From the NCBI GenBank assembly GCA_963666285.1, contig OY762711.1: a stretch of DNA of 64,000 nucleotides; one strand, given 5' to 3'. Numbering within the stretch: position 1 is the first letter of the stretch; every line of letters begins with the position of its first letter. Source of the DNA: Sedimentisphaerales bacterium. GTDB taxonomy: Bacteria > Planctomycetota > Phycisphaerae > Sedimentisphaerales > SM23-30. Below the pieces are notes generated by a model, which did not search any database, was not told the origin of the DNA, and saw only the letters and a program-made list of their open reading frames with translations. Position numbers and translations under genes: made by a program. Shown here one piece after another: positions 13,321 through 46,808 of the stretch.

Positions 13321-15587
13321 TTAATTTTTATCATACACCCTGACATAATCAATATAATATTTATGAGGAAACAGGCTGTCATCAATACCTTTTTGACCGC
13401 CCCATGCTCCGCCAATCGCAAGGTTTAGTATTAAATAATGCGGCTTATCAAACGGCCATTCATTATCTCCGGTACCTTCATTACGAAAAGTAAAATAATG
13501 CTTATTATCAACGAATGTCTCAATCCTGTCATCATACCACTCAATTGCATATAAATGATACTTATCCATACAGGTTGGAACCTTTATAGTAGCACTCTTC
13601 TGTGTGCCGATTACATGATAATAGCTCTTACAGTGAATTGTGCCAACGATAGTCTCCGGATCATAACCAACATTTTCCATTATATCGATCTCGCCGCATT
13701 TCGGCCACCCAACCTGACCAATATTTTTCCCCAACATCCATATCGCCGGCCAGGTCCCTTTCCCTGTTGGCAGCTTTGCCCTTATCTCAAATCTACCATA
13801 AGTCCATTCTTTCTTCCCTGCAGTATGGATACTCGCTGATGTATATTCAGCATTCTCTTTGTACCCCTCTTTTCGTGCCTCAATCAGCAAACTGCCATTC
13901 TCAACACGTGTATTCTCCAGTCTCTGCCTGGTATAATATTGCTTTTCATTATTTCGGATAAAACCAACCTCATGGTTCCACTTCTCAGCATCAGGCAAGC
14001 CCTGATAGTCAAACTCATCATTCCAGCTCAACTTCCACTCAGGATCCTCCGGTTTATTGTAGCCCTTTTCATCACAATGCAATTTTGAATGCAATCTTAC
14101 TTTATTTACCGTATCCCCGCCATTTTGTAAGTAAAACCGGTTTTCCTTGACTCCGGAATCAATTCTATCTGATTTCGTATTATCTGCGGTAAAAACGGCA
14201 CTTGTTAACGGATGCCATATACCATCGATACTCTTCACCCAGCCATTACCAAAACTTGCATTGCGGATTTGCTTGGCACTTTCGCCATTACGCCTGAAAT
14301 CTTCGACAAACGAATAATACCCTTTTAATGGATCGCCAGCGGTTTTTGTCTGGAATGTAGCAAGATGCTTCCAGCCGCTCGTCTCGCTCAAACAAACAAA
14401 AGCTGAGTAAATTGTTGTGTCATTCTCTACCACAGCTTTGACTATACACCTTACAGTCTGGTTCAGCTCCCAATCAGTATAAAACATAGACTTCGCGCCC
14501 GTGCCTTCATTTCCAAACCTGCTTATTTTTACATCATCTCCGGAAAATATAACTTTAACCCGGTTTTCTTCTTGCACCTTAGCTGGATCATTCTGATCAC
14601 CCGGATCCCACACAGAGAAGATTACTACTTTTTTCCCTCCCCATAACTCCTGGATTCCAAAATAGCCGTGATTAAATCCACAAACGCAAAAGTAACTGCC
14701 TGGAACACTTTTTTCAACTGAAACTTCATTATAAAATGCCATACCTTCCGGAGCGTCATACCACAAATGAACACTGCGGGCTGCTCTAGGAAACTCATTT
14801 CCCTGGGCCAAGACATTTGTTACTATTAAAAAACATATAAACAGGAGAATAAACGTATACTTTTGTCGAGTAGGCATGTCGCCTCCTTTCATTAATTTAA
14901 CAAATTCTGAGTTTCATTATATTTTGTGCAAGGAAACGCATGCCCCTCACAGAACCGGACTTGAAGATTTCCCTCATCCGGCTCTTCATTAATGCTCACT
15001 TTGACGGCTACATAAGGCAAAGTAATGTGCCTTGTAGAAGTCTCCGATAGAAGACGCTGTGGAACGTTCATGGTTTCTTCCAGTTCAGTGCCTGGCCAAT
15101 ATCCTGTTTCGCCTTTACACATTAATGCTGACCCCTTCGAGTGCCTCAAACTTCGAAACTCAACAGGCATTACCCTGTTTACTCCTCTACTATGAGTCAG
15201 TCCGACTACCAAAATGCCATACGGCCGCGTCACGGTTTCAGCTCCTTGGCCGCTTCCTTTCGGAGCACTTCGGTTCTCCCAAGTTCCAATGCAGTCAGTT
15301 CGTTTGCCCGCTACGGACTCAGACCCCGGCTCGTCGATATATGCTCGCCGTATTTCGCATATATCGATATTGGCTTCAGGCATATGAAAACCCTGGCCCG
15401 GATGCGATAAGGAATAATTTCGGGGCTCAACACCTTCACTTGCGTTGTGGCTGACAAACTCCTTTCCCGGGGCTTCGTACAGTTCGTTACCTCTCTGCAC
15501 GCCCGGTGCTGTAATGGGCGGGTGGCTAGCCCTTACCCATGCCGGATTGGCCGGCTTGACTACATTAGCTTCGCTTGGCGCTCTCAT
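13321..15587 (-). CDS. Secreted DUF3472-like + GH16 (laminarinase-type) hydrolase, interrupted by a group II intron; exons 15584-15587 and 13321-14864
   Basis: GH16 motif WPAIWMLG..WPKCGEIDIMEN; splicing joins ATGA|AAAAG to give MKKYTFILLFICF signal peptide (515 aa); unspliced RNA has an in-frame ATG at 14877. Confidence 0.85.
14865..15583 (-). mobile_element. RT-less group II intron, copy 1 (719 nt)
   Basis: 5' GAGCG; domain V GAGCCGGATGAGGGAAATCTTCAAGTCCGGTTC (14952-14984, AGC triad); domain VI with bulged A (14871) ending CTCGAC; short DIV closed by CATTAATGT/GCATTAATG; no YADD/RT; identical copy 2955 bp away. Confidence 0.92.
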
Positions 15588-15646
15588 ACTCTTTCCTTAC
15601 CCGGCATAACCAGATGAATTAAAAAATTAAACTTATGGCCAAAATA

Positions 15647-16795
15647 TCATTGTTTTAGCCATTCAAATGAAAATCTGTCAAAAACTATCATCTCATATGG
15701 ATGATCATTTCCTTTCTCAAATAAACAGCCCGCTGTCCCATCAGCCGTCACTGCAAGACACGAATACGCACTGGCTCCGCTATATAGCAATTTTGCGACC
15801 GGCCAGGTCTTACCATCGTCATAACTCAGCCTAACAGTCATGTTAACACGAGAACTCATACTCGCTGGATTAGAAAACAGAAGATAAGGTCGTGATTGTG
15901 AGTTATCATCATCACTCATCCACTTCACAATACTCGCCTGGCAGATTGGCTCAACCAATTCAGAATCATAAAAAGTCTCCGACCAGGTTACTCCGCCATC
16001 GTCACTGCAGCTCACCGCACGGGTCCTATTCTCCCTGAAGTAATTTCTGCTATTCAGCATAATCCTTCCGTCCGACAATTCGACAACCTGACACTCATTT
16101 AACTTATCTGCCCGGGTTGAACCTCCCAGCTTCCAGCTGTTACCATGGTCATCGGAATAACTAACATGAGAATAATACTTCTTGCTACCCTTCTCTATAT
16201 GATCGCAAGGTATCACCAATCTCCCATTAAACCGCCCGCTGCATAGCTGAATCCCGCAACCAGGCCCGGTTGCATACCAGCTCCAGTTTTCCTGCTTTGT
16301 CGAACTGGTTATATCAATAGGCTTTGTCCAGGAAATACCATCATCTGAACTGTGAGACACCCAGACTGTTCTGGTCTCTTTACTGCTGCCATCTATTATC
16401 TGCCTTTCGTGGTCCGAGCCAAGGTTGCGAGTCATAAGCAACCAGATAATACCGGTATCTTCGTCTACCACCACACAAGGATTACCGCAGGTATTTTCAC
16501 CGTCTGACCAGACTATTATCTGATCTGACCATGTTTTACCATTATCTGTACTTCGCTTCAGTAAAATATCGATATTGCCGGCATCCCCTTTGTTTTCCCT
16601 GCCTTCACAAAATGCCAGGATAGTCCCTTTTGTAGTCACTCCCAAAGCCGGAATACGATAGGTATGATAGCCGCCACTGCCACTTTCGTAAACAGTGCAT
16701 ATTTCTCTCTCAAAATTACTTTCAGCCAAAACATGAAAATGACAAACCAAAAGTAATATTATAATTTTCAGTCCAAAATACATGTAATTATTCAT
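15647..16795 (-). CDS. Secreted exo-alpha-sialidase (GH33)
   Basis: YRIP motif; Asp-boxes STDNGKTW, SSDDGISW, SDDHGNSW, SDDGGVTW, SYDDGKTW; signal peptide. Confidence 0.92.
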   Translation of the reverse strand: MNNYMYFGLKIIILLLVCHFHVLAESNFEREICTVYESGSGGYHTYRIPALGVTTKGTILAFCEGRENKGDAGNIDILLKRSTDNGKTWSDQIIVWSDGENTCGNPCVVVDEDTGIIWLLMTRNLGSDHERQIIDGSSKETRTVWVSHSSDDGISWTKPIDITSSTKQENWSWYATGPGCGIQLCSGRFNGRLVIPCDHIEKGSKKYYSHVSYSDDHGNSWKLGGSTRADKLNECQVVELSDGRIMLNSRNYFRENRTRAVSCSDDGGVTWSETFYDSELVEPICQASIVKWMSDDDNSQSRPYLLFSNPASMSSRVNMTVRLSYDDGKTWPVAKLLYSGASAYSCLAVTADGTAGCLFEKGNDHPYEMIVFDRFSFEWLKQ

Positions 16796-16821: not shown

Positions 16822-18542
16822 TTACTGTCTCGTATTGTTCACCTTGACTGCTTCAATTGTCATATCTTTCCATTCGGATTCAATACCGCGTAAATGATGA
16901 TCGAAAAACTGCTTTGTATATTTAATTGTCTCCGGTCCAAATCCTTGACCGTGCCCTCCGTCTTTTACGGTAATCATTGTACAGTTTATTTTTGCTTTTC
17001 TCAAAGCAGTAATAAATAATTCAGATTGATTATACGGCACCAGCGGATCTTTGGTACCATGAATTATTAAAAATGGAGGATCATCTTTAGTAATATACCG
17101 AATTGGATTCGCAGTAGCAACCTTATCCTTATTCTCTTGTATGGCTCCTCCGATAAGTTCTGATTCCGGCGAATCTGGTGCATCGTGGCTCTGGATCGAA
17201 CCTGCTTTATCCATCTGCAAAAAATCGGTCGGGCCAAAGAAATCTGCAACACATGAAACATGACTCGAAACGTCTTTATATTCTCCTAGTCCCCCATCCA
17301 TAACCGCCGCTCCACTGCTCGTACCCAGCATTGATACCAGGTGGCCGCCGGCTGATGATCCCCATACCCCTATCCTATCGCTATCTAATCCGTATTTATT
17401 TGCATTTGCCCTTATCCAGCGAATGGCAGCTTTACAGTCATGAATTTGTGCCGGCCAAACGGCATCTCCACTTAACCTGTAATTTACTGTCGCCGCGGCA
17501 TAATCTCCTGAAGCAACAAACGGTATCAGCTTTCCGACACTACTGGATTTATCTCCCGCTCTAAATGCTCCGCCATGAACATACACAATTACAGGCAAAG
17601 ACTTTTCTCCTGAATTCTTTGGAATCAGCAAATCTAAACACTGTCTTTCATGACTGTTTTTTAGATAAGGTAAGTCTTTTATGTGTAGAACATTATCGCG
17701 GTTCATCTTATACTGCATACCTCTTTCCGGCCTTTCCCTGTTTTGTTCCTGCTGGCCGAATAGCTGAGCTGCTCCCAAAAATATAACCAGAATCACGATT
17801 ATCTGTCTATTAATATCTTGTCGAGTAGGCATGTCGCCTCCTTTCATTAATTTAACAAATTCTGAGTTTCATTATATTTTGTGCAAGGAAACGCATGCCC
17901 CTCACAGAACCGGACTTGAAGATTTCCCTCATCCGGCTCTTCATTAATGCTCACTTTGACGGCTACATAAGGCAAAGTAATGTGCCTTGTAGAAGTCTCC
18001 GATAGAAGACGCTGTGGAACGTTCATGGTTTCTTCCAGTTCAGTGCCTGGCCAATATCCTGTTTCGCCTTTACACATTAATGCTGACCCCTTCGAGTGCC
18101 TCAAACTTCGAAACTCAACAGGCATTACCCTGTTTACTCCTCTACTATGAGTCAGTCCGACTACCAAAATGCCATACGGCCGCGTCACGGTTTCAGCTCC
18201 TTGGCCGCTTCCTTTCGGAGCACTTCGGTTCTCCCAAGTTCCAATGCAGTCAGTTCGTTTGCCCGCTACGGACTCAGACCCCGGCTCGTCGATATATGCT
18301 CGCCGTATTTCGCATATATCGATATTGGCTTCAGGCATATGAAAACCCTGGCCCGGATGCGATAAGGAATAATTTCGGGGCTCAACACCTTCACTTGCGT
18401 TGTGGCTGACAAACTCCTTTCCCGGGGCTTCGTACAGTTCGTTACCTCTCTGCACGCCCGGTGCTGTAATGGGCGGGTGGCTAGCCCTTACCCATGCCGG
18501 ATTGGCCGGCTTGACTACATTAGCTTCGCTTGGCGCTCTCAT
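16822..18542 (-). CDS. Secreted alpha/beta-hydrolase (esterase), interrupted by a group II intron; exons 18539-18542 and 16822-17819
   Basis: HGGAF, GSSAGG nucleophile, HGTKD, GGHG; splicing joins ATGA|AAGAT to give MKDINRQIIVILVIF (333 aa). Confidence 0.85.
17820..18538 (-). mobile_element. RT-less group II intron, copy 2 (719 nt)
   Basis: Apparently identical to 14865-15583 (same translations in three frames); boundaries ATGA|GAGCG...CTCGAC|AAGAT. Confidence 0.92.
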
Positions 18543-18568
18543 AAAAACTCCCTTCATTATTCTATCGA

Positions 18569-27041: not shown

Positions 27042-27116
27042 GGTGAAAGACGGGACTCGAACCCGCGACCCCCAGAACCACAATCTGGTGCTCTAGCCAG
27101 CTGAGCTACTATCACC
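27042..27116 (-). tRNA. tRNA-His(GTG)
   Basis: Cloverleaf with encoded G-1, anticodon arm CCAGA-TTGTGGT-TCTGG, GGTTCGAGTCC T-arm, C73; CCA not encoded. Confidence 0.95.
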
Positions 27117-46723: not shown

Positions 46724-46808
46724 GCCCAGGTGGCGGAATTGGTAGACGCGCCAGCTTGAGGGGCTGGTGGGAGTTATTCTCGTGCTGGTTCGAATCCAGT
46801 CCTGGGCA
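46724..46808 (+). tRNA. tRNA-Leu(GAG)
   Basis: GCCCAGG/CCTGGGC acceptor stem, anticodon arm CCAGC-TTGAGGG-GCTGG, long variable arm, GGTTCGAATCC; CCA not encoded. Confidence 0.96.

Follow-up and report, generated by a model that had tools for sequence, protein, structure and literature searches.

The DNA considered here is a 64,000-nucleotide (nt) window of contig OY762711.1 from Sedimentisphaerales bacterium (assembly GCA_963666285.1), and the element in question is a 719-nt group II intron that occurs twice within it, on the minus strand, each time inside the second codon of a gene. Copy 1 interrupts a secreted DUF3472+GH16 gene and copy 2 a BD-FAE esterase gene (both assigned by Pfam). Splicing copy 1 in silico at ATGA|...CGAC|A yields an open reading frame (ORF) of 515 codons beginning MKKYTF, and the same operation on copy 2 yields one of 333 codons beginning MKDINRQ. 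An initial annotation of this locus, made from the sequence alone, had proposed that two short guide motifs in the intron are complementary to a start codon and to a Shine-Dalgarno (SD) sequence, respectively. The structure of the guides, the covariation of three intron-exon pairings, and the pattern and enrichment of the occupied sites have now been computed.

14865..15583, minus strand: group II intron copy 1, 719 nt (RF02005, 115.9 bits; RF00029, 55.5 bits)
17820..18538, minus strand: group II intron copy 2, the same 719-nt element (RF02005 and RF00029 matches)
14952..14984, minus strand: domain V of copy 1, with AGC triad (RF00029 alignment and pattern match)

Both window copies match RF02005 (domains I-IV) over the full model, positions 1-225, at 115.9 bits against a gathering score of 49, and RF00029 (domains V/VI) at 55.5 bits against a gathering score of 40. 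Domain V carries the AGC triad, in GAGCCGG...CCGGUUC, and domain VI has a bulged A near the 3' end, CCUACUCGAC. Copy 1 is bounded by 5' GAGCG and 3' CCUACUCGAC (3' end AC). The same GAGCG (15579-15583 in copy 1) opens 11 of 11 copies in the present genome, which is labeled G000 below (other G-numbers are related genomes), unlike nearly all relatives in other genomes, which begin GUGCG or GUGUG. These 11 copies comprise eight near-identical 719-nt introns, a decayed variant of 648 nt and two longer copies (about 1.9 kb) that bear a reverse transcriptase (RT) gene; the 719-nt element has no such gene or ORF. It is best regarded as a group II intron of IIB-like type that is non-autonomous and presumably capable of splicing. 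In the public sequencing run X1, contig graphs branch exactly at 14864 and 15588, and depth over the intron is about 168-178 compared to 17-23 in the flanks, roughly an eight- to ten-fold excess. Among the contigs of four public runs over 14400-16000, none spans the intron, and they show no empty site and no spliced form, an outcome that in itself weighs neither way on splicing. The metatranscriptome X8 contains just relatives, mostly under 95% likeness.

The guide motifs lie in domain I of the intron. The exon-binding sites (EBS) assigned there, and the intron-binding sites (IBS) of the flanking exons with which they are predicted to pair, are as follows.

15382..15387, minus strand: EBS1 (UCAUAU) of copy 1, within the loop that caps the Id hairpin (copy 2: 18337-18342)
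15406..15417, minus strand: EBS2 loop of copy 1, UUAUUCCUUAUC (copy 2 loop: 18361-18372)
15408..15414, minus strand: anti-SD core UUCCUUA, within the EBS2 loop (copy 2: 18363-18369)
15456, minus strand: candidate EBS3 of copy 1, a U in gUUUG-UCAGCC that pairs with the first base of the 3' exon (copy 2: 18411)
15584..15589, minus strand: IBS1 of site 1, GUAUGA, covering the start codon and base 1 of codon 2 (site 2: UUAUGA, 18539-18544)
15593..15601, minus strand: IBS2 of site 1, GGUAAGGAA, the SD region of the gene (site 2: AAGGGA, 18549-18554)
14864, minus strand: IBS3 of site 1, A, the first 3'-exon base (site 2: 17819)

Read on the minus strand, 15395-15377 is CAGG-GUUUUCAUAUG-CCUG with UUUUCAUAU at 15390-15382, and UUCCUUA lies at 15414-15408, directly after GAGCCCCGAAA; the motifs and all of the coordinates in the initial annotation are correct in this reading. 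The Rfam alignment shows UUUCAUAU as a hairpin's terminal loop and AAAUUAUUCCUUAUC as the 5' strand, unpaired, of an internal loop that is asymmetric; both motifs are also unpaired in a minimum free energy fold of 15432-15318. In an alignment (A1) of this domain I subdomain from 40 distinct relatives, the helices flanking both loops are 89% paired, with compensatory changes in 17 of 29 pairs; none of 500 shuffles reaches these values, and slid controls pair at 26-50%. The alignment, the fold and the covarying helices thus agree that the two motifs are unpaired rather than parts of helices, as expected for the guides that they had been taken to be. The stem can be drawn either in the annotated register (CAGG/CCUG) or in a family-wide one (GGGU/GCCU), and the loop bases are identical either way. 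The most variable columns of A1 are those of the EBS1 and EBS2 motifs. In addition, a related intron from a second organism (runs X4-X6) shows differences clustered in 15380-15391 and 15411-15415, which again marks the two loops as variable guide segments.

Both 5' exons end in UAUGA (15588-15584 at site 1 and 18543-18539 at site 2), and each has an SD-like motif a short distance upstream, UAAGGAA at 15599-15593 in site 1 and AAGGGA at 18554-18549 in site 2. UUCCUUA pairs with both, as had been claimed, and the site 1 helix is longer than the seven pairs originally counted, with nine contiguous pairs between GGUAAGGAA (15601-15593) and UUCCUUAUC (15414-15406) and a duplex energy of -10.0 kcal/mol. 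The IBS1-IBS2 gaps of 3 and 4 nt given for the two sites are right when IBS1 is counted as 6 nt.

Further evidence for the identity of the guides comes from relatives that have different exons. Of 151 related genomes searched with RF02005, 35 gave a match, and of 401 from the same order queried by BLASTN with domain I, 53 did; G000 is among the matches in both cases. From these, 61 distinct combinations of 5' exon and loop were extracted; 15 rows were dropped because their loop region departs from the subclade pattern (mostly members of other subclades), and the covariation tests were run on the remaining 46 intron/site rows. The score for EBS1 paired with its cognate exon is 589, compared to 405.5 +/- 16.2 after permutation, and that for the EBS2 loop is 484, compared to 364.1 +/- 17.6; none of 5000 permutations reaches the cognate score in either case. 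The relatives are not independent of one another, and the number of evolutionary events is therefore smaller than these permutation figures would suggest. EBS1 pairs with the last 5-7 bases of the 5' exon, and examples include UCAUGG/CCAUGA, CUGUUUU/AAAACAG, CCGUGU/ACACGG and ACUCCAU/AUGGAGU, as well as UCUCCA/UGGAGA, UUACCA/UGGUAA and UUAUCC/GGAUAA. For EBS2, covariation with exon positions of about -7 to -16 is seen in the ten bases that follow CGAAA. The register is set by introns whose EBS2 does not face an SD, in which loop base i pairs with exon position -(6 or 7 + i); two of these, UAAAAUUU/AGAUUUUA and UUAUUCUU/AAGAAUAG, form 8 pairs each, and others are AUGUCU/AGACAU and UGAUG/CAUCG.

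A similar picture emerges within the present genome. The RT-bearing parent and the ORF-less copy are about 86% identical over domain I, and they differ in 4 of the 7 bases of the EBS2 core (GAAAUUA in the parent, UUCCUUA in the ORF-less copy) and in most of the EBS1 loop (UCUUAA and UCAUAU, respectively). One parent copy sits behind UUAAGA, which is complementary to the parental EBS1. Since the loops are unpaired and covary with their own 5' exons over the 46 pairs, UCAUAU and UUCCUUA are, by this comparative evidence, EBS1 and EBS2, as the initial annotation had it.

The distribution of the 719-nt copies in the genome bears on what these guides select. All eight lie one base after an ATG; six of them start ORFs of at least 153 codons and one starts an 86-codon ORF. 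The remaining copy (C1:5266367-5267085) occupies a non-genic look-alike, AAGGA-N4-GUAUGA|A, followed by a frame of 5 codons, and argues for RNA-guided choice over survival at real genes only. This last site, AAGGAUGAGGUAUGA|AGGAUGAAGG, is located behind a terminator-like hairpin and has a repetitive purine-rich stretch downstream. The occupied sites were compared with 2032 putative ATGA starts, defined as the 5'-most ATG of ORFs of at least 150 codons, which is a crude proxy. UAUGA precedes all eight copies, compared to 41% of the ATGA starts (p = 8.6e-4), and AAGGA occurs at -18..-5 in 5 of 8 sites, compared to 11.8% of the background (p = 9.5e-4); AAGG is present upstream of 7 of 8 sites, and GGAGG of none. 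The mean EBS2 helix score is 13.6 at the eight sites and 9.5 at the 2032 starts (Mann-Whitney p = 7e-4), and the mean duplex energies are -6.4 and -3.4 kcal/mol (p = 9e-4). The excess persists when the comparison is restricted to the 1294 starts in which a 4-mer is complementary to the tail of 16S rRNA (p = 0.007 for helix score and 0.012 for duplex energy). The 16S rRNA of this organism ends in GGAUCACCUCCUUUCU, so that UCCUU is common to the 16S tail and EBS2, and AAGGA is the pentamer most often present at -18..-5 of putative starts (494 of 4175). The genome contains 6259 TATGAA sequences in all but just 114 that read AAGGR-N3-7-TATGAA, 46 of them at putative starts; an EBS2 match therefore sharpens the aim at gene starts. 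The prediction that the intron has many potential targets is borne out by the 449 putative starts that read TATGAA, 117 of which have an EBS2 helix score of at least 12.

The 3' side of the junction gave a different result from that originally proposed. The EBS1 loop had been thought to extend its pairing across the junction into AAA, and the targets were accordingly described as genes that begin with Met-Lys codons. In the 20 rows with a known 3' exon, column 15456 (the third U of gUUUG-UCAGCC, in the coordination loop) is U in 14 of 14 rows with A as the first 3'-exon base (+1) and in 3 of 3 rows with G, and it is G in 3 of 3 rows with C. The G-C rows are confined to one clade and so probably reflect one evolutionary event. 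The U immediately 5' of EBS1 remains U in all 20 rows, including those with C at +1. At the eight sites in the present genome, +1 is always A, compared to 53% of ATGA starts (p = 0.006), and +2 is a purine at 7 of 8, compared to a background of 70%, which is not significant. The +1 base is thus, judging from covariation, read by EBS3 in the coordination loop, in an EBS3-IBS3 pairing of the IIB type. A delta-type pairing, in which the U run beside EBS1 contacts AAA, was considered and rejected, because only +1 is constrained and it covaries with 15456.

Because +1 covaries with U15456, the target becomes SD-N-UAUGA|A rather than AUG-AAA. Pairing of the loop with AAA was not confirmed, given an unconstrained +2 and an invariant U next to EBS1, and the Met-Lys description is unsupported, A at +1 being the only constraint on the 3' side. 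The anticodon of initiator tRNA (tRNA-fMet) is CAU, and EBS1 contains CAU. The proposal that the ribozyme reads its target in the manner of 16S rRNA and initiator tRNA therefore stands with respect to the complementarity to the SD and UAUGA, and fails with respect to AUG-AAA. It is quite likely that the three exon-binding sites together read a generic bacterial translation-initiation region; on this reading, the guides pair with the ribosome-binding site and the start codon, and the copies consequently sit right behind gene starts.

The history of the anti-SD loop was analyzed with a tree from domains I-III in which both loops were masked. All of the anti-SD loops (in G000, G037, G079, G103, G282 and G383) fall into one clade with 100/100 support, and three retargeted members, among them the RT-bearing parent in the present genome, are nested within it. 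The trait thus probably arose once. A second group that targets start codons (in G079, G340, G309, G294, G381 and G398) is marked by a conserved UUNNCAACAU loop in the position of EBS2 (loci L053, L085, L088, L092, L106, L121, L128, L130 and L131); several of its introns begin G-CAGCG, one base off the usual boundary. A sister clade (L096-L110 and related loci, in at least ten genomes) has one conserved site, ...GUGGAGACAUUUUGGAGA|C, with UCUCCA as EBS1 and AUGUCU as EBS2. A search for further copies in five relatives gave few new sites, because copies in draft assemblies sit at contig ends.

Several of these results weigh against generic recognition of gene starts by the three guides. With all anti-SD loops in a single clade of probably one origin, its members are not independent cases. 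The UUNNCAACAU loop shows no pairing with the SDs at the sites of its introns, so that anti-SD pairing is not required for landing at start codons, and one of three sites in G037 pairs poorly with EBS2 (score 6). An SD lies upstream of nearly every start, and complementarity at the occupied sites is therefore partly expected; the background of gene starts is crude and there are just eight sites. The IBS1-IBS2 spacing varies, with best offsets of 6-8 here and up to 9 in relatives, unlike the contiguous pairing in relatives with non-SD guides. Finally, the intron begins with GAGCG instead of the usual GUGYG, and splicing was not observed. Three of these points, the start-codon targeting by the CAACAU-loop group without anti-SD complementarity, the variable spacing to IBS1 and the poorly paired G037 site, are what might be expected if EBS1 (with EBS3) alone selects UAUGA|A, the upstream SD being incidental and UCCUU an inherited loop sequence with little role in targeting. 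This explanation is unlikely, however: the same loop is clearly EBS2 in relatives, where 0 of 5000 permutations reach the cognate score, the occupied sites out-pair even SD-bearing starts (p = 0.007), the non-genic site has AAGGA at the right distance, and parent and derivative differ precisely in the EBS2 loop. The initial observation is thus confirmed, and the interpretation first placed on it is supported in part, with its core, recognition of the SD and start codon by the guides, holding on comparative and statistical evidence.

The intron also carries a translation start signal of its own, close to its 3' end.

14875..14889, minus strand: AAAGGAGG-N4-AUG in domain VI of copy 1, intron-borne (copy 2: 17830-17844)

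This AUG shares the phase of the host AUG-A; its A lies 13 nt upstream of the 3' splice site. The SD+AUG arrangement also occurs in relatives from G037, G079, G004 and G054 and in a copy on a Caedibacter plasmid, and it is kept in relatives with and without an RT gene (loci L047, L036, L051, L070 and L132). The frame entered from the host ATG is open for 231 codons, almost the whole intron (14892-15587, and 17847-18542 in copy 2, minus strand), whereas over 240 codons the other two frames contain 15 and 20 stops. The open frame is closed by a TAA that overlaps an ATG, as TAATG; this overlap lies 15 nt upstream of the domain VI AUG, and its ATG is in frame with the host gene. No Pfam family matches the 231-amino acid (aa) frame. 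The equivalent frame closes after 30-35 codons in G079, G004 and G037 and after 5 in the parent copy.

An in-phase SD+AUG within the intron raises the question of whether the site pattern could arise after insertion. In such a survival filter, the intron would insert at many UAUGA|A sequences, and those at gene starts would persist because the domain VI signal keeps the host gene translatable, so that the enrichment of SDs reflects selection rather than targeting. The placement of 7 of 8 copies at ORF starts in a genome with 6259 TATGAA sequences would fit this scheme. Nonetheless, it is quite improbable: intergenic insertions should survive as well, and none is seen except the one look-alike, and the scheme leaves unexplained the pairing above that of SD-bearing starts, the non-genic copy itself and the loop swap between parent and derivative. 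The domain VI signal could also be the partner of UUCCUUA. AAAGGAGG (14889-14882) contains AAGGA, with which UCCUU could form 5 pairs, and the loop might then serve mainly to mask this sequence or the exon SD and so control translation rather than insertion. There is very little to be expected of this idea, because across relatives the loop covaries with the exons and not with domain VI, and relatives with non-SD loops still keep the domain VI SD.

Guided recognition of the exons would have a consequence for expression of the host gene. In the pre-mRNA, the guide pairings would cover the host SD and AUG, so that ribosome binding and recognition of the 5' exon should exclude each other. It is close to an even question, tilting slightly to the negative, whether a broader scheme applies: a IIB-like clade lacking an endonuclease, with an anti-SD EBS2, an anti-UAUGA EBS1 and U as EBS3, for which any gene start of this kind is a homing site; an SD+AUG in domain VI and, in the present genome, an open frame ending in TAATG, which could keep the host gene translatable; and a competition between ribozyme and ribosome that amounts to a switch between splicing and translation.

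The two copies of about 1.9 kb encode a 443-aa intron-encoded protein (IEP). It matches TIGR04416 (group II RT/maturase) over residues 40-409 with 340 bits against a cut-off of 300; Pfam finds RVT_1 alone, and no endonuclease (HNH) domain was found by Pfam. Comparison of the IEP with solved structures and plasmid records returned just generic group II RT matches and no named class, the best match being on Caedibacter plasmid pKAP298 (64.7% identity). The intron copy on pKAP298 has no RF02005 match, and its 5' exon was therefore not used.

The orientation of the copies is also informative. All 11 intron copies on contig C1 are co-oriented with replication, compared to 58.6% of ORFs (p ~0.003). 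Judged by GC skew, the origin lies near 5.70 Mb and the terminus near 2.65 Mb; copies between these two points lie on the plus strand, and those on the other arm on the minus strand. In RmInt1-type introns, co-orientation has been linked to priming by replication forks, and the co-orientation of 11 of 11 copies fits priming at the fork.

Group II introns move when the excised RNA, together with the IEP, reverse-splices into DNA and is then reverse-transcribed (as outlined in the relevant passages of PMC4424553). For the present element, we infer splicing activity, mobilization in trans, a DNA target and the use of replication forks. The RT/maturase would be supplied by related full-length copies in the genome and would mobilize the ORF-less intron. 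EBS2 UUCCUUA would pair with an AAGGA-type SD, EBS1 UCAUAU with (R)UAUGA, which takes in the start codon and one further base, and EBS3 U15456 with the A that follows. Where all three can pair, the excised RNA would reverse-splice into the sense DNA strand and be reverse-transcribed, and copying of the inserted RNA would probably take place at replication forks. Since the guides match a motif present in hundreds of genes, such an element would not home to one site but spread to the starts of unrelated genes. Elsewhere in the window there are two tRNA genes, at 27042-27115 (minus strand) and 46724-46808 (plus strand).

In the common view, mobile group II introns home to one site or, in the case of group IIC, to terminators. 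Group IIC introns target transcription terminators or attC sites; they are not known to have an EBS2, and they recognize a DNA stem-loop together with a short IBS1. The present lineage resembles them in reading a generic, recurrent genomic signal rather than one gene. It is unlike them in that a full set of EBS1, EBS2 and EBS3 appears to read the sequence of the initiation region. Guides for an SD and a start codon would thus constitute a third strategy, one that parasitizes a universal signal of gene expression, and they would account for the spread of one ORF-less element among unrelated gene starts.

The likeness to the translation machinery is one of analogy by complementarity, not homology. 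Like the anti-SD tail of 16S rRNA and the initiator tRNA, the guides read the same mRNA nucleotides by Watson-Crick pairing; unlike them, the intron has the further requirements of U at -5 and A at -1 and +1, and most likely DNA is what it reads. The predicted direct competition between the ribosome and 5'-exon recognition makes the coexistence of introns with coupled transcription-translation testable on a natural system, and the guide set is a natural model for the design of targetrons directed to gene starts. Full-text searches, which did not extend to Michel et al. 2007, turned up no description of an anti-SD EBS2 or of generic homing to start sites. The anti-SD start-site guide set is a new target specificity for a known type of element.

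Two further systems are among the closest known. The ORF-less TeI3 and related families of Thermosynechococcus elongatus proliferate with the IEP of related copies, according to passages of Mohr, Ghanem and Lambowitz (2010, PMC2882425). As described there, they share with the present intron the existence of ORF-less derivatives and the divergence of families in EBS sequences and targets. TeI3 homes to specific sites, such as one between two start codons of an intron ORF, and the available passages of PMC2882425 make no mention of generic SD+AUG recognition. The second system consists of IIB1 introns at start and stop codons, such as Avi.groEL and EcKTE56.groEL, which are located in or next to initiation or termination codons; in the passages of PMC12584367 that describe them, each member homes to one conserved proteobacterial housekeeping gene. 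The present intron is like that clade (Michel 2007) in its placement at an initiation codon and in its EBS/IBS pairing. As far as the clade is characterized in these excerpts, it differs in three respects. The clade has a large insertion in domain I, whereas here there is none, with 33 nt from the 5' end to RF02005 position 1; its RT is of the CL1 lineage with a C-terminal endonuclease, whereas the IEP here has no endonuclease domain; and each of its members occupies one gene, whereas here many unrelated genes are occupied and the guide is anti-SD. How the start/stop-codon introns colonize these codons is stated to be unknown by the authors in the same excerpts of PMC12584367; in the element described here, the way in which the site is found can be read from the guides.

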